Position numbers and translations under genes: made by a program
DNA from: an uncultured Actinomycetes bacterium
Lineage (GTDB): Bacteria; Actinomycetota; UBA4738; JBBDTT01
DNA: 64,000 nucleotides
Direction: 5' to 3'
NCBI GenBank assembly: GCA_963742735.1
Contig: CAVUMN010000003.1
Coordinates: 352,001 to 416,000 of the forward strand
Shown: positions 1,451-61,424 of the stretch, in pieces
Layout of the letters: the number at the start of each line of letters is the position of its first letter
How positions within the stretch are numbered: position 1 is the stretch's first letter
Notes under the pieces: generated by a model
Seen by the model: the letters and a program-made list of their open reading frames with translations, nothing else
The model's database searches: none
What the model was told of the DNA's origin: nothing

Positions 1451-1497
1451 GCGGGCTCGAGCCCGGAGGTTCCTCAGGGGCGGCTAGAATGCGGCCC

Positions 1498-1926
1498 ATG
1501 CTCTCCAAGGCCGAGGTGCAGAAGCTCCTGTCCGAGGTCGGACTCTTCGCCGGCACCTCCAAGAAGGAGCTCGCCGAGATCGCCTCGGTGGCCAAGGTCG
1601 TCGACCACGCCGCCGGCGACGTCATCGCCCGGGAGGGCGAGCGTGGCCTGGGATTCTTCCTGCTCGCGGACGGCAAGGCGGAGGTCACGATCGGCGGCCA
1701 GCGCAAGGCCGTCCTGGAGCGGGGGGACTTCTTCGGAGAGGTCTCCCTGCTGGACGAGGGACCGCGGTCCGCGACGGTCACGGCCATGACTCCGGTGATC
1801 CTTCTGGGGGTCACCGCGTGGGCGTTCAAGGACCTCGTGGAGCGCCACGCCACCATCGGGCTGAAGATGCTGGAGACCGTGGCCGCTCGCGTGCGCAACG
1901 CCACGCGCGACGCCGCCACCCTCTAG
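1498..1926 (+). CDS. Stand-alone cyclic nucleotide-binding domain protein
   Basis: GDVIAREGE...GDFFGEVSLLDEGPRSATV phosphate-binding cassette, no HTH. Start ATG 1498 chosen because TAGAAT lies at 1485-1490. Confidence 0.85.
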   Translation: MLSKAEVQKLLSEVGLFAGTSKKELAEIASVAKVVDHAAGDVIAREGERGLGFFLLADGKAEVTIGGQRKAVLERGDFFGEVSLLDEGPRSATVTAMTPVILLGVTAWAFKDLVERHATIGLKMLETVAARVRNATRDAATL

Positions 1927-1932
1927 CCGCGC

Positions 1933-2940
1933 GTGCCCGAGCTCGGGATCGTCGTCGGCGGGCCGCTGCCGGGGCTGGCCGAGATGGCCCGGCGCGCCGA
2001 GGACGCCGGGTACGAGAGCCTGTGGGTGGCCGAGACGTCTCGCTCGGCCTTCAGCCAGGCCGGCGTGGCCGTCCAGGCCACGTCGAGGGCGACGGTCGGG
2101 ACGGCGATCGCACTGGCCTTCCCGAGGAGCCCGGCGATCACCGCGATGGAGTCCCGCGACCTCGACGAGCTGAGCGGCGGGCGGTTCGTGCTCGGGCTCG
2201 GCTCGCAGGTCAAGCGGGTGAACGAGCAGCGCTTCGGCGTCGCCTTCGAGCACCCGGCGCCGAAGATGCGCGAGTACGTGGAGGCGGTGCGCGCCGTCCT
2301 CGGATCGTTCGGCGGGACGCCGCCCGAGCACCGCGGCCGGTTCTACGAGATCACGATGGCTCCGTTCCCGGGAGCCACGCCGCCCGCGCGGCCGCTGCCG
2401 ATCTATCTCGCGGCCGTGAACGAGCGCATGGCCGAGGTCGCCGGCGAGGTCGCGGACGGCGTCCAGGGGCACCCGATGACCTCGCCCCGGTGGGTCCAGG
2501 AGGTCATCCGCCCGGCGATCGCCCGGGGTGCCGCCCGTGCCGGGCGGGATCCGGCCGAGGTGAGCGTGACCACCAACGTGATCCTGCAGGTCACCGACGA
2601 TCCCGAGGTGGCCCGGCGGGAGGCGGCGGGCCAGCTCGCGTTCTACGCGACCACCCGGACGTACGCCCCCGTTCTGGAGATGCACGGGTTCGGGGACCTG
2701 ACCGACCCGATCCGGGAGGCGTTCGGGCGGGGAGACCTCGGGGCGATGGTCGACCTCGCCCTTCCGATGGTGGAGACGCTCGCTGTGGCGGGCGACGTCC
2801 GGATGTGCCGGGAGCGGCTCGAGGCCTTCGACGGGATCGCCGATCGCATCGTCCTCGGCGGGGCTTGGGTCGGCACCGACCCGTCCCGCGTGATCGAGAA
2901 CTACCGGGTCATCCTGGAGGCGTTCGGGCCGGCCGCCTGA
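1933..2940 (+). CDS. LLM-class (luciferase-like) oxidoreductase, probably F420-dependent
   Basis: AEDAGYESLWVAE, GTAIALAFPRSP, DELSGGRFVLGLGSQ, PIYLAAV motifs. Confidence 0.85.
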   Translation: MPELGIVVGGPLPGLAEMARRAEDAGYESLWVAETSRSAFSQAGVAVQATSRATVGTAIALAFPRSPAITAMESRDLDELSGGRFVLGLGSQVKRVNEQRFGVAFEHPAPKMREYVEAVRAVLGSFGGTPPEHRGRFYEITMAPFPGATPPARPLPIYLAAVNERMAEVAGEVADGVQGHPMTSPRWVQEVIRPAIARGAARAGRDPAEVSVTTNVILQVTDDPEVARREAAGQLAFYATTRTYAPVLEMHGFGDLTDPIREAFGRGDLGAMVDLALPMVETLAVAGDVRMCRERLEAFDGIADRIVLGGAWVGTDPSRVIENYRVILEAFGPAA

Positions 2941-3848
2941 TGGGCGAGGCCGACGCTCGCCGTCTGGCCGAGGAGCGTGCCGGGAGGCGCGCGGCCGGGG
3001 ATTACGCCGCGGCCGACGCCCTTCGCGAACGGATCGAGGCACTCGGGTTCCACGTCGCCGATACGGCCGAGGGCTTCACCCTGGTGCCGATCGAGACGGA
3101 GCCGGCCGAGCGGGTTCGGCTCCGCCCCGAGGACGTGGGGTCGGCTCTTGACGCGCCCCCGGACGTGGACGTGAGCATCCACTGGCTCGCGGAGGGCTGG
3201 CCCGAGGACGTCCTGCGAGGGATCGCCTCCTTCGATGCCCAACGGGGAGGGCGGCGGGTCCAGCACGTCGTGGTCGAGGCGGTGCCCGCCGACGAGGGCT
3301 GGCCGGAGGGGTGCGAAGTCCTCCCGATGCGGGAGGGGCTCGGGTGGGCGCGGTGTCGCAACGCCGGCCTCGCCCGCTCCCGAGGCGCCCTGGTGTTCGT
3401 CGTCGACGGCTCTACCCAGGCCACGGGGGACGTCTTCGATCCTCTCGAGGCCGCGCTCGCCGACCCGTCGGTGGGGATCGCCGGGCCCGTGGGGGCGGTC
3501 ACCGACGAGCAGCTCCACGAGTTCGTGCCCGCGACGGAACCGGAGTGCGATGCGATCGAGGGCTACCTGATGGCGTTTCGCCGGGAGGTGCTGACGCGCG
3601 GGGTTCGGTTCGACGACCGGTTCCGGTTCTATCGATCGGCCGACCTGGACTTCTCGTTCTCCGTCAAGGACCTCGGGCTGCGTGCCCTGATGGTCGAGGT
3701 GCCGATCGAACGGCACGAGCACCGGACATGGTGGACGACGGAGCCCGCCCGGCGGGCGCAGCTGTCCAAGCGCAACTACTACCGGTTCCTGGACCGTTGG
3801 CGGGGCCGTTCGGACCTGACCGTCAGCGGTCGGGGTTCGTCCGGGTGA
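2940..3848 (+). CDS. GT2-like glycosyltransferase with N-terminal CysRS anticodon-binding-like helical domain
   Basis: ATG 2940 overlaps the LLM stop. N-term ERAGRRAAGDYAAADALRERIEALGFHVADTAEG; C-term GWARCRNAGLARSRG..FVVDGS, DAIEGYLMAFRR, FDDRFRFYRSADLDFS. Confidence 0.75.
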   Translation: MGEADARRLAEERAGRRAAGDYAAADALRERIEALGFHVADTAEGFTLVPIETEPAERVRLRPEDVGSALDAPPDVDVSIHWLAEGWPEDVLRGIASFDAQRGGRRVQHVVVEAVPADEGWPEGCEVLPMREGLGWARCRNAGLARSRGALVFVVDGSTQATGDVFDPLEAALADPSVGIAGPVGAVTDEQLHEFVPATEPECDAIEGYLMAFRREVLTRGVRFDDRFRFYRSADLDFSFSVKDLGLRALMVEVPIERHEHRTWWTTEPARRAQLSKRNYYRFLDRWRGRSDLTVSGRGSSG

Positions 3849-5886
3849 CGCCCTCCTCGACGTCGACCGAGCCGGGCGGAGGCGGAAGGGAGACCTCCAG
3901 GGCCTCCCGCTTGGCCGCATCCGCGGCGGCCTCGGCGGCGGCGGCGCCCTGGGCGCGCTCCTCGAGGAGCTTGTCGACCTCGTCCTCGGAGGGGATCTCC
4001 GTCTCGCCGTCGATGAAGGCCTTGAGCTCCTCCCCCTCCATCACTTCCTTGGCCATGAGCAGCTTGGACAGGCGGGCGAGCATCTCGCTGCGCTCCTGCA
4101 GGATGGTCCGCGCGCGGCCGTGGGCCTCTTCGACCAGCCGGCTCACCTCGGCGTCGACTTTGCGCTGCATCTCCTCGGACATCTCGGGCCGGTCGTAGCC
4201 GAACAGGGGACGGCCGTCGGCGTTCCGGAACCCGTCCGAGGCGAACGACAGCGCGCCGATCACCTCGCTCATGCCGTACTCCACGATCATGGCCCGCGCG
4301 ATCTGGGTCGCGCGCATCAGGTCGTCCTGGGCGCCGGTGGAGATCTGCTTGAACGAGATCTCCTCCGCCGTCCGCCCGCCGAGTAGGATGGCCAGCCGGT
4401 CCTTCAGCTCGGGCTCGGTCAGGATGTAGCGGTCCTCGATCGGACGCTGCATGGTCATCCCGAGCGCGGCGGCCCCGCGGGGGATGATCGACACGCGGTG
4501 CAGGGGGTCGGCGGTGGGGACCGCGAGGGCCACCAGGGCGTGTCCCATCTCGTGGTGGGCGACGATCTCTCGCTGCTTCGGCGAGATGACGCGGCTCTTG
4601 CGCTCGAGCCCCCCGACCACGCGGTCGATGGCCTCCTCGAGCTCGGCCATCGTCACCGAGTTCTTCTCGCGGCGGGCGGCGAGCAGGGCCGCCTCGTTCA
4701 CCACGTTCGCCAGGTCCGCGCCGGTGAACCCGGGCGTCCGCGACGCGATGACGGAGAGGTCGACCTTGGGGTCGATCGCCACGCCGCGCGCATGGACCTC
4801 GAGGATCGCGGTGCGGCCACGGAGGTCGGGTCGGTCCACGATGACCTGCCGGTCGAACCGTCCGGGGCGCAGCAGCGCCGGGTCGAGCACGTCCCCTCGG
4901 TTCGTGGCGGCCATGATGATGACGCCCTTGCTGGTGTCGAAGCCGTCCATCTCGACGAGCAGCTGGTTGAGGGTCTGCTCGCGCTCGTCGTGCCCGCCCA
5001 GGGATCCCCCGAGGGCGCCGGCCCGGGTCTTGCCGATCGTGTCGAGCTCGTCGAGGAATACCAGGCACGGGGCCTTCTCCTTGGCCTGCTGGAACAGCTC
5101 GCGGACGCGAGCCGCCCCCAGGCCAACGAACATCTCCACGAACTCAGAGCCGGACATGTAGAAGAACGGCACCTTGGCCTCGCCGGCCACGGCCCGGGCC
5201 AGCAGGGTCTTGCCGCAGCCGGGCGGGCCGAGCAGCAGGACCCCCTTGGGGATCCGGCCGCCGAGGCGCTGGTACTTCTTGGGGTTCTTCAGGAAGTCCA
5301 CGATCTCGTGGAGCTCCTGGACCGCCTCGTCGACGCCCGCCACGTCCGAGAACGTCGTCTTCAGATCCTTGCGGTCGTAGATCTTGACCTTGTTGCGGCC
5401 CAGGTTGAGCGCGCCGGCGCCGGCACCGCCCATGGTTCGCCGGATGAAGAAGATGTAGAAGCCGATGATCAGGATGAAGGGCAGGATGTAGCCGAGCACC
5501 GTGCCCAGCAGGCCCGGCTGCACGCCCTTGACGCTGATGCCCTTCTCGGCCAGGTCGGTGGTGAGCCGCGTGGGGTCGTAGTTCGGGGGGATCGTGGCGG
5601 CGATCCGGCGCTCGCCCCCGTTCTCGAGCTCCTCGACGGCCACGATGTCGGAGGTCCCGATCTCGACGTCGCTGACCTTGCCGGCCTCCGCCAGCCTCAG
5701 GAACTCGCTGAACCCCACCTGCCGGGTCGTGGCCCGAAGCGGGTTGAGCAGCAGGACCAGCAGCAGGAGGGCGATGACCACGTAGCCGACGGAGAAGCGC
5801 ATGCGGCTCTTGCCCGGCCCGCCCTGCGAGCCCTGGCTCCCGCCCCCGAGGTCGAAGGGGAATCGGTTCTTCCGGTCATCAGGCAT
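3823..5886 (-). CDS. ftsH: ATP-dependent zinc metalloprotease FtsH
   Basis: Two N-terminal TMs, GPPGCGKT Walker [22 protein letters not shown] zinc motif. Confidence 0.97.
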
Positions 5887-5940
5887 GGCCTACATCTTCC
5901 CACCCGGTCGCCCATTAGGACATGGCGGTATCGTGGCCGG

Positions 5941-6522
5941 GTGAGTGACGCCCAGCCGGTCGAGGACGCTGATCTCCGGCAATCGTTCGAGGCGGAGGCC
6001 CTGCCCCTGCTGCCCGGCCTCTATCGCGCGGCCCTGCGCCTGACCCGGAACCCCACCGACGCCGAGGATCTCGTGCAGGAGGCCTACCTTCGCGCGTACC
6101 GGGGATTCCACCAGTTCACACCCGGGACCAACCTGAAAGCGTGGCTCTATCGGATCCTCACCAACCAGTTCATCAACACCTACCGCAAGAAGCAGCGCGA
6201 GCCGCAGACCGTCCCCGACGAGGAGGTCGAGGACTGGTACCTGTACAACCGGCTGGCCCGCGAGGCTCCCGATTCCTCGGCGGAGGCGGTGGTGCTGGAG
6301 TCCATGCCGGACGAGGACGTCCGGGCCGCCCTGGAGGCGCTTCCCGAGACGTATCGGGCGGCCGTTCTGCTCGCGGACGTCGAGGGGTTCTCCTACAAGG
6401 AGATCGCGGAGATCCTCGAGATTCCGATGGGCACCGTGATGTCGCGACTGCATCGCGGAAGGAAAGCGCTGGAGAAGGCGTTGTGGGAGAAGGTACGGGA
6501 GAGGGGCCTTGTCAGGGATTGA
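5941..6522 (+). CDS. sigH: ECF sigma factor, SigH/SigR family
   Basis: [67 protein letters not shown]; GTG start 5941; ZAS anti-sigma follows. Confidence 0.9.
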
Positions 6523-6745
6523 CTGCGAAGCCGTGCTGCGCCAGGTGGAGCTCTACCTCGATGGTGAGCTCGAGACCGTGGCCTACAGCGAGCTCGAAGT
6601 GCACCTCACCGGGTGCTCTTCCTGCATGCACCGCGTGGAGTTCCGCAGCGCGCTGCGCCGGATCGTGAAGGCCAAGTGCGCCTCCGACCCGGTACCCGGA
6701 GACCTCATGCAGCGGATCCGCTCGTCTCTGTGGGACCAGGACTGA
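6509..6745 (+). CDS. rshA: Zinc-binding anti-sigma factor, RshA/RsrA family
   Basis: [20 protein letters not shown] (HxxxCxxC); overlaps the sigH end. Confidence 0.9.
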
Positions 6746-7003: not shown

Positions 7004-7147
7004 CCGGTTCCGGTTCTCTGCCCGTCATTCGCTGATAGGCTCGTTCGCAGGGTTCGGCCCGGGTAACCCCTGAGGGAGCCGTTTCCGGTTCGCCGTGGGG
7101 TTGTGAAACAATGCAACCACCTATCCGGGTCCCCCAAGGAGCCGAAA

Positions 7148-7345
7148 ATGGCCCAGAAACGAGCCCCCGCCCCGAAGTACCTCAAGACCGCCGAGGTCGC
7201 GGAGATCCTGCACGTCTCCCCGAAGACCGTCACGCGGTGGGCCAAGGACGGGAAGCTGCCACACTCGCGGACGCTCGGCGGCCATCGCCGGTTTCCGAGC
7301 GAGCGCATCCAAGAGCTGGCCGACGAGCTGATCGAGTCCGTCTAG
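7148..7345 (+). CDS. bldC: BldC-family MerR-like winged HTH DNA-binding protein
   Basis: YLKTAEVAEILHVSPKTVTRWAKDGKLPHSRTLGGHRRF matches the BldC signature; SD AAGGAG upstream of ATG 7148. Confidence 0.85.
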   Translation: MAQKRAPAPKYLKTAEVAEILHVSPKTVTRWAKDGKLPHSRTLGGHRRFPSERIQELADELIESV

Positions 7346-7397: not shown

Positions 7398-8714
7398 GTG
7401 TTCGGCAAGGTCCTGGTCGCCAACCGCGGTGAGATCGCCTGCCGCGTGCTCCGCACCCTCCACCGGCTCGGGGTAGCCGGCGTCGGCGTGTACTCCGACG
7501 CCGACGCCCAGGCCAAGCACGTTCGCGAGGCCGCCGAGTCGGTGCGGATCGGCGAGCCTCCGGCCACGGTGTCCTATCTGAACCCCGCCGCGATCGTGGA
7601 TGCGGCCCTGGCGAGCGGCGCGGAGGCCATCCATCCCGGCTACGGATTCCTCTCCGAGAACGCGATGTTCGCTCGGGCGGTGGCCGACGCCGGGCTGGTG
7701 TTCATCGGCCCGCCCCCCGAGGTGCTCGAGCTCTCCGGCGACAAGGTGGCCGCCCGCAAGGCGTTCGACGCGGCGGGGTTCCCGGTGCTTCCCGGAGGTG
7801 GGCCGTACGAGACCCCGGAGGAGGCGCTGGCCGCGTCCGCGGAGGTCGGCTTCCCGATCATGGTGAAGGCGACGTCGGGCGGCGGCGGGATCGGCATGGG
7901 CATCGCCGAGGACGAGACGGAGCTCGTCAAGCAGGTCGAGACGGCCTCCACCCGGGGGGAGCGGTTCTTCTCCGACGCCTCCGTCTACCTGGAGCGGTAC
8001 GTGCCGGGAGGCCGGCACATCGAGGTGCAGATCTTGGCCGACGACGCCCGGACGCTGCACCTGTACGAGCGCGAGTGCTCGGTCCAGCGGCGGCACCAGA
8101 AGGTGGTGGAGGAGTCGCCGTCGCCGGCGCTCGACGAGCCGCTGCGCGAGGAGATCTGCCGGGCCGCGGTGGCCGCGATGGAGTCGATCGGGTATCGCGG
8201 CGCCGGAACCGTCGAGTGCATCCTGACGCGCGACCGCGAGTTCTTCTTCCTGGAGGTCAACGCGCGACTGCAGGTCGAGCACCCCGTCACCGAGATGCTC
8301 ACGGGGCTCGACCTGGTCGAGGAGCAGCTGCGGATCGCCGCCGGCGAGGGCATGTCGATCGAGGACACTCCGTCGAAGAGCGGGCACGCGATCGAGTTCC
8401 GCCTCTACGCGGAGGATCCCCGAACCTTCCTGCCCGCCCCGGGCCGCGTCGAACGGCTCGTCCTGCCCGAGGACCCCGGGCGATGGCGGTACGACTTCGG
8501 GTACGACGAGGGGGACGAGGTGCCGATGTTCTACGACCCGCTGATCGGCAAGATCATCGTGCACGGCGACGAGCGGACCGATTCGTTGGACGGTACGCCG
8601 CTGGACCTCGTGGAGATCGAGGGCCTGAAGACCAACCTTCCCGCGCTGCGGACCGTCCTCGCCGGAGAGCGGTTCCGGTCGGGGGAGTACGACACCGGGT
8701 TGCTGGGACGATGA
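7398..8714 (+). CDS. Biotin carboxylase subunit (stand-alone, no BCCP domain)
   Basis: KVLVANRGEIA, HPGYGFLSEN, GGGGIG, ERECSVQRRHQK, FLEVNARLQVEHPVTE. Confidence 0.95.
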   Translation: MFGKVLVANRGEIACRVLRTLHRLGVAGVGVYSDADAQAKHVREAAESVRIGEPPATVSYLNPAAIVDAALASGAEAIHPGYGFLSENAMFARAVADAGLVFIGPPPEVLELSGDKVAARKAFDAAGFPVLPGGGPYETPEEALAASAEVGFPIMVKATSGGGGIGMGIAEDETELVKQVETASTRGERFFSDASVYLERYVPGGRHIEVQILADDARTLHLYERECSVQRRHQKVVEESPSPALDEPLREEICRAAVAAMESIGYRGAGTVECILTRDREFFFLEVNARLQVEHPVTEMLTGLDLVEEQLRIAAGEGMSIEDTPSKSGHAIEFRLYAEDPRTFLPAPGRVERLVLPEDPGRWRYDFGYDEGDEVPMFYDPLIGKIIVHGDERTDSLDGTPLDLVEIEGLKTNLPALRTVLAGERFRSGEYDTGLLGR

Positions 8715-9493
8715 GCGACGACGTCGTCCTCTACGAGGTGCGTGGGGCGTCGGCGTGGGTCACGATCAACCGGCCGGAGTCCCGCAACGCCCTGAACCCG
8801 GACGTCATGTCCGGACTGGCCGACGCGGTGGAGCGTGCCGGGGCCGACGAGTCGCTGCGGGCGGTGGTGCTCACCGGGGCGGGTGACCGAGCCTTCTCAG
8901 CAGGCGGCGATCTCGGGGGGTTCGCGCCGGATACCTCGAAGGTGGCCCAGCACGGCGCCCGCGGGGCGATGGCTCGGTTGCTCGAGGCGCTGCAGGACTG
9001 TCCCCTCCCGGTGATCGCCCGGGTGCGGGGCCGGTGCCTGGCCGGGGGGTTCGGCCTGGCGCTGGGCTGTGACCTGATCGTCGCCGCGGACGACGCCGAG
9101 TTCGGCACGCCGGAGATCGACATCGGGCTGTGGCCGTACATGATCACCGCGGTCATCCAGCGGAACATGCCTCGGAAGGTGGCCCTCGACCTCATGCTGA
9201 CCGGGCGCCGGATGGACGCCGCCGAGGCGGCGAGGTGGGGGATCGTGAACCGGGTCGTTCCGTCCGATGGTCTGGACGGCGCGGTGGACGAGCTGGTCGC
9301 CGTGCTGGCCGGCAAGAGCCCGCTCATCCTCCGGCTCGGGAAGGGCTCGTTCTACCGCGCCCAGGACATGACCTTCTCCGACGCCCTCGCGTTCCTCCAC
9401 TCGATGCTCACGGTCAACCTCGAGGCCGAAGACGTCGTCGAGGGAATCACCGCGTTCATGCAGAAGCGTCCCCCCGACTGGAAGGGTCGCTAG
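8711..9493 (+). CDS. Enoyl-CoA hydratase/isomerase (crotonase) family
   Basis: INRPESRNAL, AFSAGGDL, LAGGFGLALGCD, FGTPE, EGITAFMQKRPPDW; ATGA overlap. Confidence 0.93.
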   Translation: MSDDVVLYEVRGASAWVTINRPESRNALNPDVMSGLADAVERAGADESLRAVVLTGAGDRAFSAGGDLGGFAPDTSKVAQHGARGAMARLLEALQDCPLPVIARVRGRCLAGGFGLALGCDLIVAADDAEFGTPEIDIGLWPYMITAVIQRNMPRKVALDLMLTGRRMDAAEAARWGIVNRVVPSDGLDGAVDELVAVLAGKSPLILRLGKGSFYRAQDMTFSDALAFLHSMLTVNLEAEDVVEGITAFMQKRPPDWKGR

Positions 9494-9585
9494 GACCACC
9501 CGAGCGGGCTCTTGACCGGCCGGCCTCGGCCTGATATTCCACATCGCATTTCGCCGGCCGGCCCGATCGAGCAGGGAGGCGCCTC

Positions 9586-10350
9586 ATGGCCACGGTCATC
9601 GACAACGTCAAGCGCGCGAAGAAGGGGCTTCCCGAGAAGGGGCAGCTCGTGATCGACAACGGCGTCGTCGAATGGCGAGGCGAGAAGGACGGGATCAAGA
9701 CGCTGAGCGACGTCAAGGGCGTCGGGGTCTCGCTGAGCGCGCCCGGGGCCGTCGTCATCACCTATGGGGATCCCCAGCAGCAGGAGCAGTTCATCGACTT
9801 CAGGCGCGGGGCGCTGAAGACCCAGGGCCAGGCGAAGGTGCTCGAGCAGGACATCCGCGATGCTCTCGGACTGACGGCGGCATCGGCGGTGCCGTCCGAC
9901 CCCGTGGCGGCCGGCAACTTCCAGCGGATGGCGGCCCAGGCCGAGAAGTCGGCGGGAGCCAAGGGGATGATCTTCGGGGCGATCGCGCTCGCCGTCGGGA
10001 TCGGGATCACCGTCGTCACCTACGGGAACGCGTCCAGCAGCCCCTCCGGCGGCAGGTACATCGTCGCGTGGGGGCCGATGCTGTTCGGGTTCATCGCGTT
10101 CGTGCAAGGGTTGTTCCGCTTCGTGAAGGGCAACGGCCAGCTCGCCAGGGCCGGCATGGCGCCGGCCGCGCAGACCGCGCCGCCCCCCACGGGGCCGCCG
10201 GTCGCCCCGCCCCCACCGGCCGCGCCGGCTCCCGCCGACGCCGCGCCCGCGTATCCGCCTCAGGCCGCTCCGCCCCCGCCCCCGCCGATGTCGACGCCGG
10301 TGATCCTGCCGCCGCCCTCCGCGCCGCCCCCTCCGCCACCCGCGCCCTGA
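9586..10350 (+). CDS. Hypothetical membrane protein, two TMs and Pro-rich C-terminal tail
   Basis: SD GGAGG; TM segments flanking GGRYIVAWGPMLFG; poly-Pro tail. Confidence 0.75.
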   Translation: MATVIDNVKRAKKGLPEKGQLVIDNGVVEWRGEKDGIKTLSDVKGVGVSLSAPGAVVITYGDPQQQEQFIDFRRGALKTQGQAKVLEQDIRDALGLTAASAVPSDPVAAGNFQRMAAQAEKSAGAKGMIFGAIALAVGIGITVVTYGNASSSPSGGRYIVAWGPMLFGFIAFVQGLFRFVKGNGQLARAGMAPAAQTAPPPTGPPVAPPPPAAPAPADAAPAYPPQAAPPPPPPMSTPVILPPPSAPPPPPPAP

Positions 10351-10447
10351 GGCGTGCCGGCGGGGGGCCGGGCTACAGTAGGCGCGAGCGGGCCCCGGAA
10401 AGCATCGGGGGTTGAGCCTCCGGCGACGGGCCCCGAGGAGGTGAACG

Positions 10448-12100
10448 ATGGCGGACCCCACGCCGTCTCCCGTTGCATCCGAGGGTGGCGAAGCGCCCGT
10501 GAGCACACCGGCGAAGCCCGCCCCAACCCTGACCTATTCCGGCCCGACGATGGCCGAGGCCACGGCGGATCTCCACCGGCGCCGCGACGACGCGCGCCAG
10601 ATGGGCGGCCCCGAGCGCATCGAGCGGCAGCATGCCGGCGGCAAGCTGACCGTTCGTGAGCGCCTCGAGCGGCTGTACGACGAGGGCTCGTTCCTCGAGT
10701 TCGGGATGCTGGCGCACCACCAGTCGGCGTCGCCGGCGATGCAGGGCAAGAACACGCCCGCCGACGGGGTCGTGTGCGGCATCGGCACGATCGACGGCCG
10801 CCGCGTCGCCCTGATCGCGTACGACTTCACGGTGATGGCCGGCTCGATCGGCATGGTCGGGGAGCTCAAGGCGACCCGGATGCGCGAGCTCGCGCTCAAG
10901 GAACGGATCCCCATCGTGTGGCTGATCGACTCGGCCGGCGCCCGCATCCAGGAGGCCGCCGGCTCGATGTTCGCCCGCACCGGCGACCTGTTCAAGGAGC
11001 AGGTCCACATGAGCGGGGTGATTCCACAGGTCTCCGCGATGATGGGCCCCGGCGCCGCAGGGACGGCGTACATCCCCGGGCTCGCCGACTTCGTGCCGAT
11101 GGTCAAGGGCACCTCGAACATGGCCCTCGGAGGACCGCACCTGGTGAAGGCGGCGGTGGGCGAGGACGTCACCGCCGAGGACATGGGCGGCTCCGCGGTG
11201 CACAACAAGGTCTCCGGCGTGGCGGACCTCGAGGTCGCCGACGACGACGCCTGCCTGGAGGCCGTGCGCACCTACCTGTCGTTCTTCCCGTCCTCGAATC
11301 TGGAGAAGCCGCCGATCCGGGAGACGTCCGACCCCATCGATCGCCGATGCGACCTGCTGCTCGATCTGGTCCCGGCCAACCCGCGGCAGGCGTACGACAT
11401 GCGCAAGCTCATCGCGGAGGTCGTGGACGACCACGAGTTCTTCCCGATGAAGCCGGACTGGGCCCGCAACCTGATCACGGGCTTCGCCCGAATCGGTGGA
11501 CGGCCGGTGGGGATCGTGGGCAACCAGCCGATGTTCCTGGGCGGCGCCCTGGATGTGAACTCCGCGGACAAGGCGGCCCGGTTCGTGTGGCTCTGCGACG
11601 CCTTCCATGTCCCGCTCGTCTTCCTGATGGACTGCCCCGGGTTCCTGGTCGGCTCGGCGGTCGAGAAGCAGGGGATCATCCGCCACGGCGCCAAGATGCT
11701 GTTCGCGGTGGCCGAGGCCACCGTCCCGAAGGTCACGGTGGTGATCCGCAAGGGCTACGGCGCCGGCTACTACGTGATGAACGGGCGGGCGTACGAGCCC
11801 GACATGATCGTCGCGTGGCCGACCGCGGAGATCTCGGTGATGGGCCCCGAGGGCGCGGTGAACATCATCTTCCGCAAGCAGATCGAGGCCGCGCCGCCGG
11901 AGCAGCAGGACGAGATGCGGGACTCGCTGATCAACACGATCCGGGAGCAGATCAACCCCTACGTGGCGGCGGGCTGGTCGTTCGTGGACGACCTCATCGA
12001 TCCCGCCGACACCCGGACCGTGCTCGCTCGAGCGCTCGCGTTCGCCGAGACCAAGGTGGTCGAGCGGCCCTGGCGGAAGCACGGGGTGCTGCCGGTCTGA
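10448..12100 (+). CDS. Acyl-CoA carboxylase carboxyltransferase (beta) subunit
   Basis: QHAGGKLTVRER, ADGVVCG, DSAGARIQE, DKAARFV..CDAF..PLVFLMDCPGF, RKHGVLPV. Confidence 0.95.
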   Translation: MADPTPSPVASEGGEAPVSTPAKPAPTLTYSGPTMAEATADLHRRRDDARQMGGPERIERQHAGGKLTVRERLERLYDEGSFLEFGMLAHHQSASPAMQGKNTPADGVVCGIGTIDGRRVALIAYDFTVMAGSIGMVGELKATRMRELALKERIPIVWLIDSAGARIQEAAGSMFARTGDLFKEQVHMSGVIPQVSAMMGPGAAGTAYIPGLADFVPMVKGTSNMALGGPHLVKAAVGEDVTAEDMGGSAVHNKVSGVADLEVADDDACLEAVRTYLSFFPSSNLEKPPIRETSDPIDRRCDLLLDLVPANPRQAYDMRKLIAEVVDDHEFFPMKPDWARNLITGFARIGGRPVGIVGNQPMFLGGALDVNSADKAARFVWLCDAFHVPLVFLMDCPGFLVGSAVEKQGIIRHGAKMLFAVAEATVPKVTVVIRKGYGAGYYVMNGRAYEPDMIVAWPTAEISVMGPEGAVNIIFRKQIEAAPPEQQDEMRDSLINTIREQINPYVAAGWSFVDDLIDPADTRTVLARALAFAETKVVERPWRKHGVLPV

Positions 12101-61336: not shown

Positions 61337-61352
61337 GCGCCCCGGCGTTTCG

Positions 61353-61424
61353 TGCCCCCGGCAGGATTCGAACCTGCGCCCCCCGCTCCGGAGGCGGGTG
61401 CTCTATCCCCTGAGCTACGGGGGC
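61353..61424 (-). tRNA. tRNA-Arg(CCG)
   Basis: GCCCCCG acceptor stem, D arm GCTC-AGGGGATA-GAGC, anticodon arm CCCGC-CT CCG GA-GCGGG, T arm GCAGG-TTCGAAT-CCTGC; CCA not encoded. Confidence 0.97.

Follow-up and report, generated by a model that had tools for sequence, protein, structure and literature searches.

A bacterial protein family that joins a cysteinyl-tRNA synthetase-type anticodon-binding domain to a GT-A glycosyltransferase domain

The C-terminal alpha/beta domain of Escherichia coli cysteinyl-tRNA synthetase (CysRS) reads the GCA anticodon. Pieces or copies of class I aminoacyl-tRNA synthetases (aaRSs) have been recruited to new tasks in MshC, CysRS* and GluQRS/YadB, the last of which modifies a tRNA anticodon base. 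In these paralogues the catalytic domain survives and the anticodon-binding domain is gone. For CysRS, a 2022 review of aaRS paralogues names only CysRS* and MshC (PMC9437257). Here, we describe a protein family that, by the same kind of recruitment, has done the reverse. Our subject is P0001, the 302-residue two-domain product of a gene at positions 2940..3848 (+) of a 64,000-nucleotide stretch of DNA from an uncultured Actinomycetes bacterium (GenBank assembly GCA_963742735.1, contig CAVUMN010000003.1, positions 352,001 to 416,000; hereafter the window). In P0001, a domain homologous to the C-terminal domain of CysRS stands N-terminal to a glycosyltransferase (GT) domain, and the aminoacylation domain is missing. 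Our best reading, offered tentatively and rated somewhat short of an even chance, is that P0001 is a GT tethered to the anticodon arm of tRNA-Cys, where it would transfer a glycosyl-type group.

The GT domain resembles soluble GT-A family-2 (GT2) enzymes, such as 6yv7, K4CP (2z86), WrtF (9omn) and ppGalNAc-T2, in both fold and profile, and it shares with GT2 enzymes an asparagine (N141) in an 'RNxG' helix and an Asp-containing C-terminal block. Unlike these enzymes, the P0001 family carries a D-x-S-x-E motif, an H-x-H-R-x-W motif, a basic C-terminal helix and the appended tRNA-synthetase domain. Precedents for nucleic-acid bases as sugar acceptors are the animal queuosine-tRNA glycosyltransferases QTGAL and QTMAN and the trypanosomatid base-J glucosyltransferase. 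These act on queuosine in GUN-anticodon tRNAs or on DNA and are not known to have an aaRS-derived domain, and tRNA-Cys (GCA) is not known to carry queuosine. If our best reading is right, they would be functional analogues of P0001.

The gene at 2940-3848 is real. Its ATG start at 2940 shares an ATGA with the TGA of the upstream gene, its stop codon lies at 3846-3848, its 302 codons have a G+C content of 0.77/0.51/0.88 at codon positions 1/2/3, and it has orthologues in related genomes. Since the G+C content of the window is about 70%, long open reading frames (ORFs) come cheap in it. A longer ORF of 676 amino acids (1818-3848) was ruled out as a gene by the G+C values of 0.95/0.74/0.52 in its in-frame stretch 1818-2939; these 374 codons give an Arg/Gly-rich translation, overlie a real LLM-class oxidoreductase gene in a different frame, and were judged noncoding.

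Taken alone, P0001 falls below threshold against models of the CysRS C-terminal domain: it matches Pfam CysS_C (PF23493) over residues 5-42 with E=0.14 and 12.7 bits (cut-off 23), the NCBIfam cysteine--tRNA ligase model PRK14536 over residues 5-45 with E=0.069 (model positions 444-484 of 490), and PDB entry 1li5 (E. coli CysRS 414-457) with E=0.13. A profile (A2) was built from 20 orthologues found at genome loci, each cut to its first ~52 residues; searched against the PDB, it recovered five CysRS entries (1li5/1u0b, 9e-10; 3tqo, 1.2e-9; 3sp1, 1e-7; 6ujd, 1.8e-4; 8qhp, 2.5e-4), each at its extreme C-terminus, while the next PDB match had E=0.096. Searched against the six-frame translation of the source genome (3.08 Mb in 5 contigs, 88.9% complete), the same profile gave exactly two matches, namely P0001 and the genome's real CysRS, which is a separate 463-residue gene on the same contig (G000:C3, L036:1004-2395). 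The class I catalytic Rossmann domain (PF01406) was not matched in P0001 by the Pfam scan. Among the matches listed, 27 of 120 homologues carry a precomputed PF23493 match and 25 of 120 bear the JGI name 'cysteinyl-tRNA synthetase'.

An AlphaFold2 model of the whole protein, computed from a 43-sequence alignment, reached a mean predicted local distance difference test score (pLDDT) of 95.7 and a predicted template modelling score of 0.81. In this model, residues 2-50 (pLDDT 92-97) form two helices (2-18 and 22-34) followed by two strands (37-42 and 45-50), a helix-helix-beta-hairpin order that we take to be the expected secondary structure of the CysRS C-terminal domain; the likeness is one of secondary structure order. 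We regard the N-terminal ~50 residues as truly homologous to that domain by sequence, and we assign residues 3-50 (2946..3089, +) as a CysS_C (PF23493-like) copy, the counterpart of E. coli CysRS residues ~410-461 (1LI5/1U0B), with the contact residues kept. It is about 43% identical to the CysRS copy of the same genome. The first-pass annotation had proposed from the bare sequence that the first ~48 residues follow the CysRS C-terminal pattern; the strings it quoted are all present, and the A2 profile, with CysRS as its best match at 9e-10, bears it out. An acidic linker of varying length and sequence (residues 51-75; 3090..3164, +; net charge -4) follows. Its columns are gapped and unconserved in the family alignment (A1), and its pLDDT drops to 74 over residues 51-60.

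The strongest evidence that the N-terminal domain is a part of CysRS kept for a reason comes from a Rosetta-stone link. Cluster representatives of 720-843 residues match P0001 over their C-terminal ~300 residues. In all six of the long proteins that were scanned, a complete tRNA-synt_1e domain (E about 1e-51 to 1e-96) precedes a GT2 domain, with CysS_C recognized between them in four, and in a search for longer proteins each of 12 matches carried both PF01406 and PF00535. The fusion proteins that have names come from Chloroflexota, Dehalococcoidia or Ktedonobacterales metagenome-assembled genomes and are annotated as cysteine--tRNA ligase. In a metagenome scan, we found seven fused loci, of which five (L079, L081, L082, L083, L084) contain uninterrupted ORFs of 718-816 residues and two (L080, L085) run off their contigs. 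The CysRS-GT fusion is thus real and recurrent. Since the same module is found fused to a whole CysRS, the N-terminal domain of P0001 really is CysRS-derived. The architecture of the protein is confirmed.

In the Chloroflexota fusions (720-843 residues; for example P0284 and P0273), the CysS_C-linker-GT module is the same as in P0001, with 34-39% identity over 86-97% of its length and shared D-x-S-x-E, F-R-F-Y-R and S-K-[KR]-N motifs. In these proteins a linker of about 25 residues leads from the end of the anticodon domain, its last strand, into the GT. The fusions differ from P0001 in having a complete CysRS catalytic body and in keeping a V-D-N-G-S motif (22 of 24). Across the CysRS part of 16 aligned fusions, the C-G-P, H-I-G-N, I-E-C, H-H-E-D-E and K-M-A-K-S blocks are invariant or nearly so; we take these to be the zinc ligands and the HIGH and KMSKS motifs, and the synthetase half accordingly looks active, as judged from its motifs. 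A conserved His-rich tail (of the type H-x-H-x-H-Q-H-W-P-D-H-x-H-E-H-P-H-Y-H), whose composition suggests a metal-binding appendage, ends 10 of 19 aligned fusions and is lacking in the actinobacterial stand-alone forms.

In a FastTree phylogeny of 238 GT domains, for which three further GT2 genes from the source genome served as the root, all 24 full fusions fell within a single clade of 57 leaves (support 0.95) that branches from within the stand-alone forms. Support at the basal nodes was 0.04-0.85. With basal nodes this weak, fusion-first and fission-first histories are indistinguishable: the stand-alone form may have arisen by loss of the synthetase body, or the fusion by recombination between cysS and a CysS_C-GT gene. 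Two other observations were set aside. A graded truncation series built from 16 'partial' proteins (the C-terminal half of CysRS plus the GT), at first read as a sign of selection for the anticodon-binding half, was withdrawn, as these are probably contig-end fragments; several start at internal CysRS methionines, or cluster at 90% with a full-length fusion and come from contigs of 1-3 kb. What looked like a CysRS remnant ahead of the L066 GT gene was dropped as well, being a weak high-scoring segment pair that ran through a hadB-like ORF and across a stop.

For the 1U0B structure, R427, W432, D436 and R439 are named as the residues through which E. coli CysRS interacts with the anticodon, and R427 is reported to form a bond to O6 of G34 (PMC13449415). 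In HMMER alignments to 1li5 (414-457), these four residues align with R17, Y22, D26 and R29 of P0001. We compared the family at these positions in 203 sequences, comprising 132 of P0001's own clade, 24 full fusions, 41 other stand-alone forms and 6 GT-only forms, 197 of them with a CysS_C domain; as the sequences are related, the counts overstate the independence of the observations. R17 is kept in 130/132 members of the own clade, 23/24 fusions and 40/41 other stand-alone forms, and an aromatic residue occupies position 22 in the same numbers (130/132, 23/24 and 40/41). D26 is kept in 130/132, 24/24 and 40/41, and R29 in 130/132, 24/24 and 37/41, respectively.

The CysS_C signature residues, like the putative GT active site, are under strong purifying selection. 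Across 15 genomes of the order, the mean pairwise identity among CysS_C copies is 55% for the GT protein vs 63% for CysRS, and the two copies are 43% identical to each other within a genome and 44% between genomes. A paralogue identity that is the same within and between genomes marks an old duplicate, evolving nearly as slowly as the essential copy; by these sequence comparisons it is neither recent nor decaying, and there has been no gene conversion. Together, the residue conservation and the slow evolution fit retained binding of tRNA-Cys. The same data bear on the idea that P0001 is an ordinary GT2 enzyme whose N-terminal domain lingers, without function, from an ancestral fusion of CysRS and GT genes. 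Such fusions do exist and one clade has lost the CysS_C domain, as a leftover would allow. Yet eight of the 16 positions conserved at 90% or more in alignment A1 fall within the first 41 residues, so that this domain holds half of the most conserved positions of P0001; it evolves almost as slowly as the CysRS copy; and 30 of 41 genomes of the order, together with several other families, retain it. These conservation data make a leftover very unlikely.

The GT-A/GT2-type domain spans residues 76-266 (3165..3737, +; about 76-300 overall). P0001 alone scores below the Pfam gathering thresholds for PF13641 (5.5e-4; 20.5 bits vs 27) and PF00535 (8.3e-4; 19.8 bits vs 23.3). The family profile A1 matched PDB entry 6yv7 at 3.4e-16 and chondroitin synthase at 1.3e-13, and a Foldseek search with the AlphaFold2 model returned WrtF (3.1e-10) and ppGalNAc-T2 (5.8e-10) with probability 1.00 and query-normalized TM-scores of 0.5-0.6. 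P0001 is a GT-A/GT2 protein by fold and profile similarity, as the first-pass annotation had suggested for the region after the N-terminus. That annotation had also pointed to DGS where DxD is expected, and in the hidden Markov model alignment D156-G157-S158 (3405-3413) does align with D-A-D of 6yv7 and with D-C-D/D-S-D of chondroitin synthase, as part of a family-wide D-x-S-x-E motif (D156-G-S158-T-Q160 in P0001; 3405..3419, +). In the own clade, fusions, other stand-alone forms and GT-only forms, respectively, D156 is kept in 132/132, 24/24, 29/41 and 6/6, S158 in 129/132, 22/24, 24/41 (with His in another 10) and 5/6, and E160 in 127/132, 23/24, 33/41 and 6/6. The glutamine of P0001 at position 160 is shared with two others (3 of 132 in the own clade).

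Toward the C-terminus, D235 (3642..3644, +) is a candidate catalytic base, a role suggested by its position. It lies in an F-R-F-Y-R-x-x-D-x-[DE]-x-S block that aligns with the 'ED'-type region of chondroitin synthase, and the four groups keep it in 132/132, 23/24, 38/41 and 6/6, respectively. Near-invariance is also seen at the polar positions N141, D164, D204, E207, Y209, R214, R215, R232, S239, H259, H261, R262 and W264, and from the conserved set we propose N141, D156, S158, E160, D164, D235, S239, H259 and H261 as putative active-site residues. The domain is followed by a family-specific Arg/Lys-rich helix (residues 269-290; 3744..3809, +), in which R272, S276, K277, R278, N279, R282 and W287 are conserved; the model places the helix at 269-287, and residues 262-295 have an isoelectric point of 11.5 and a net charge of +6. 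No membrane segment was noticed when the P0001 sequence was read by eye, no prediction having been made, and we read P0001 as a soluble, cytoplasmic two-domain protein.

These details also raise the question of whether the GT domain is a pseudo-enzyme and P0001 a regulator or chaperone that binds tRNA-Cys or a nucleotide sugar and has no transferase activity. D-x-S replaces DxD throughout the family, the D-N-G motif, intact in 22 of 24 fusions, is gone from the own clade, P0001 carries E113 and Q160, and its Pfam GT2 scores lie under the gathering thresholds. On the other hand, conservation in the own clade and the fusions exceeds 90% at about a dozen polar residues of the GT-A cleft region (D156, S158, D164, D204, E207, D235, S239, H259, H261 and R262), which is typical of a working site, and the D-x-H variant of 10 of the 41 other stand-alone forms recalls metal-binding DxH enzymes such as those of GT27. 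We consider a pseudo-enzyme quite improbable.

How might a CysRS-derived reader and a GT work together? In our best reading, the N-terminal domain would dock on the anticodon loop of tRNA-Cys, thereby holding the GT domain against the anticodon arm of this tRNA, or against a complex containing it, and the GT domain, in which D235 would serve as the base, would take a glycosyl-type group from a nucleotide-activated donor and transfer it. The near-invariance of the anticodon-contact residues and the absence of a glycan or cell-wall context (see below) favour a tRNA-directed function. The anticodon and the CCA end are the opposite tips of the L-shaped tRNA. Going by the domain order of 1U0B, a GT fused after the anticodon domain presumably sits beside the anticodon arm, far from the CCA end, so action on the aminoacyl group is unlikely. 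Of the two roles proposed in the first-pass annotation, tRNA glycosylation is thus a candidate function, and use of an aminoacyl-tRNA looks unlikely for P0001. A narrower form of the proposal is that the family consists of bacterial tRNA-Cys-specific glycosyltransferases whose CysRS-derived domain reads GCA so that a sugar is put on a nucleotide of the anticodon arm, with the Chloroflexota enzyme acting during charging. We regard this specific version as unlikely, if worth stating. In either form, tRNA-Cys binding, catalysis and the nature of donor and acceptor are predicted, with the architecture as the confirmed part.

Several observations weigh against a tRNA-directed GT. One clade consists of the GT alone: at each of its six genome loci the linker marks the beginning of the ORF, and a search of the surrounding ~8 kb gave no frame resembling CysS_C (E>0.1 with all filters off), so the GT can persist without a tRNA domain. 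The signature residues are also kept in all 11 repeats of an unrelated 990-residue protein (P0268) and hence may define the fold or a general mode of RNA binding, not recognition of GCA. P0001 is acidic (net charge -13; GT domain -6) and basic only in its last ~100 residues; a basic GT domain had been expected for RNA binding, and an acidic one is not what an extended RNA-binding surface would predict. The metal-binding Asp of the DxD motif is absent across the family, with D-x-S-x-E as the consensus even in the fusions. The D-N-G nucleotide-binding motif is degenerate in the own clade: P0001 has E113-A-V-P in addition to Q160, D113 is found in 100/132 of the clade and 21/24 fusions, and N114-G115, present in 22/24 fusions, has been lost from the clade, while the V-D-N-G-S motif after beta-2 is intact in 22/24 fusions. 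We know of no glycosylated nucleoside in bacterial tRNA-Cys. Finally, no tRNA-Cys gene was found in any of 49 loci, no tRNA-modification gene was noticed among the annotated neighbours, and there was no Rfam element near the P0001 gene.

P0268, which lies outside the window, is of interest in itself. This low-complexity protein has 11 tandem CysS_C-like repeats, each with the signature R..R..D-aromatic..A-D..R..G..D, separated by linkers rich in Pro, Met and Ala, and it ends in K-R-P-R-L-D-E-L; its composition looks eukaryote-like. Here, the CysRS anticodon domain may have been multiplied into a protein that binds RNA multivalently.

The gene neighbourhood was compared across lineages, with all genomes flagged as unpublished excluded from these locus-level analyses. 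In the own order (22 related loci, of which L005 and L033 are the same contig), the arrangement is a cyclic-nucleotide-binding protein, sometimes an LLM-class oxidoreductase, the GT gene, a convergent FtsH gene, a 187-residue protein and a zf-HC2 protein. This order hardly varies. The convergent FtsH gene is found in 22/22 loci (cut by the contig end in L030), the upstream cyclic-nucleotide-binding homologue in 19/22, the LLM gene in 6/22 and the zf-HC2 protein in 21/22. This synteny may reflect inheritance among kin only, and FtsH was not seen beside the GT gene in 20 distant loci. In 14 loci of other families, the order is another one but just as constant: an SDR reductase and two MaoC/Had-type (hadAB-like) dehydratases (14/14) precede the GT gene, which is followed by an extracytoplasmic function (ECF) sigma factor (13/14) and a zf-HC2 anti-sigma protein (8/14), and then by tRNA-Trp, secE, nusG, rplK, rplA, rplJ, rplL and rpoB, the ribosomal genes and rpoB being named by their order and size. 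In Bacillus subtilis, cysS presumably lies a few genes upstream of sigH-rpmG-secE-nusG, and by analogy the distant GT position (loci L059-L078) might be an old cysS locus. The six GT-only loci adjoin DHDPS and FtsK genes. Neighbours of the Chloroflexota fusions include YqeY (in two related loci), lipoamide dehydrogenase together with lipoyl synthase, PadR, MarR and a DsbD-like protein. The YqeY/GatB-type protein, which is tRNA-related, lies directly upstream of the fused cysS-GT gene (L079:5002-5478 and L080:1906-2385); the two loci are probably close relatives and count as one observation.

In none of these own-order, distant or Chloroflexota loci does the GT gene lie in a polysaccharide, lipid-linked glycan or cell-wall cluster. 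The context is part of the case for a GT whose cytoplasmic acceptor is something other than RNA, be it a small metabolite or a protein (a translation factor, for example), with CysS_C serving as a sensor or regulator (for instance of tRNA-Cys) or as a structural or oligomerization module. The GT-only clade works without CysS_C, P0001 is acidic, its closest structural neighbours include peptide- and glycan-directed GT-A enzymes (the ppGalNAc-Ts and WrtF), and the neighbours named above have a regulatory cast (the cyclic-nucleotide-binding protein in 19/22 loci and the ECF sigma factor in 13/14 distant loci). No candidate acceptor pathway, however, is encoded nearby in any lineage, a purely structural role leaves the strict conservation of Arg and Asp on the anticodon-contact surface unexplained, and the in-frame fusion to CysRS would place the GT by the anticodon arm, to judge from the domain order of 1U0B. 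On balance, a non-RNA acceptor is possible but somewhat doubtful. A defence or phage origin of P0001 was rejected, as it had no match among PADLOC (0) or PHROG (0) families; its feature-based neighbours in the ESM Atlas are generic GT2 clusters only, some of them viral or phage, and serve as leads only.

As for the tRNA complement, ARAGORN predicted 52 tRNAs in the genome (G000:C3:664882-664953 and the genome-wide set), among them a single tRNA-Cys(GCA) with an A37-A38 loop and U73. The genome also has one tRNA-Sec(TCA) and an unusual tRNA-Ser(AGA) call, and the organism probably uses selenocysteine. The sole tRNA gene in the window is that of tRNA-Arg (61352-61424).

The family is large, conserved and uncharacterised. 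A word-indexed search, in which 8000 candidates were scored, gave 1322 proteins at E<=1e-3, and an exhaustive search of 1.84 billion cluster representatives gave 815 at E<=1e-3 and 75 at E<=1e-30. Full-length orthologues (E<1e-70) are present in 30 of 41 genomes of the same order, with five lacking any match. Among 401 sampled Actinomycetota genomes, 73 have matches at E<=1e-15; they cluster in a small number of families (such as those with 22/22, 16/21, 8/10 and 18/21), and none was found in many others (0/26, 0/19, 0/31 and 0/28). The 41- and 401-genome tallies include genomes flagged as unpublished (G006, G014, G027, G030, G031, G039, G117 and G178). A survey of the architecture, as the first-pass annotation had suggested, thus finds that P0001 is not a one-off, both from its spread in Actinomycetota and from the fusion of its module to a whole CysRS.

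Within the window, a gene for a 145-residue protein with a cyclic-nucleotide-binding domain (1489..1926, +; PF00027, 1e-17) lies co-directionally upstream and is probably the first gene of the operon. It is followed by the gene for the F420-dependent LLM-class oxidoreductase (1933..2940, +; PF00296, 7e-63; TIGR03617, 1.1e-80, just under the cut-off), whose stop overlaps the start of the GT gene. The FtsH protease gene (3823..5886, -; PF01434, PF00004, PF06480) is convergent, and its 3' end shares 26 nucleotides (3823-3848) with that of the GT gene. Between FtsH and the zf-HC2 gene lies the gene for the conserved 187-residue protein (5890-6453, -), which has no Pfam match at E<=5 and is present, at 37-54% identity, in 21 of the 22 related loci. 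It was considered as an ECF sigma partner of the nearby zf-HC2 protein and rejected: besides lacking a Pfam match, it has no similarity to the sigma factor that adjoins the GT gene in distant lineages. The zf-HC2 anti-sigma-type protein is very short (78 residues; 6509-6745, +), and no sigma factor gene was recognized adjoining it. A MerR/HTH_17 regulator (7103-7345, +) comes next, and then an acyl-CoA carboxylase region (7398-12100, +) with genes for a biotin carboxylase (7398-8714) and a carboxyltransferase (10448-12100) and, between them, an unassigned 254-residue ORF (9586-10350); the carboxylase genes are syntenic with the GT region in several relatives. Upstream of the cyclic-nucleotide-binding gene, a 418-residue protein (194-1450, +) has a weak bacterial Ig-like (Big_7) match alone.

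The first-pass annotation knew of no characterised bacterial enzyme with this architecture, and in our full-text literature search, which covered few subscription journals, we likewise met neither a CysRS-glycosyltransferase fusion nor a CysS_C-GT protein. The domain pair has already been recorded by automatic annotation, and the architecture appears to be uncharacterised. As a practical matter, many members are mis-named 'cysteinyl-tRNA synthetase' in public annotation.

Both the anatomy of the protein and the evidence for the fusions are firm, and they would be unexpected to specialists in tRNA: in an arrangement opposite to that of the known aaRS paralogues, the family keeps the anticodon reader alone and attaches it to a different enzyme. 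If this reader still reads tRNA-Cys, it would be a natural reuse of an anticodon-recognition module to aim a catalyst at one tRNA, which would raise the question either of sugars on bacterial tRNA or of a glycosyltransferase controlled through tRNA-Cys. Were a tRNA-Cys-specific glycosyltransferase to prove true, bacteria would gain their first described case of a glycosylated nucleoside in tRNA and of a glycosyltransferase guided by an anticodon. Uncultured Actinomycetota of soil and sediment commonly carry the family, as do Chloroflexota, and because its neighbourhood in many genomes is one of housekeeping genes, it is probably part of core physiology and not an accessory trait.

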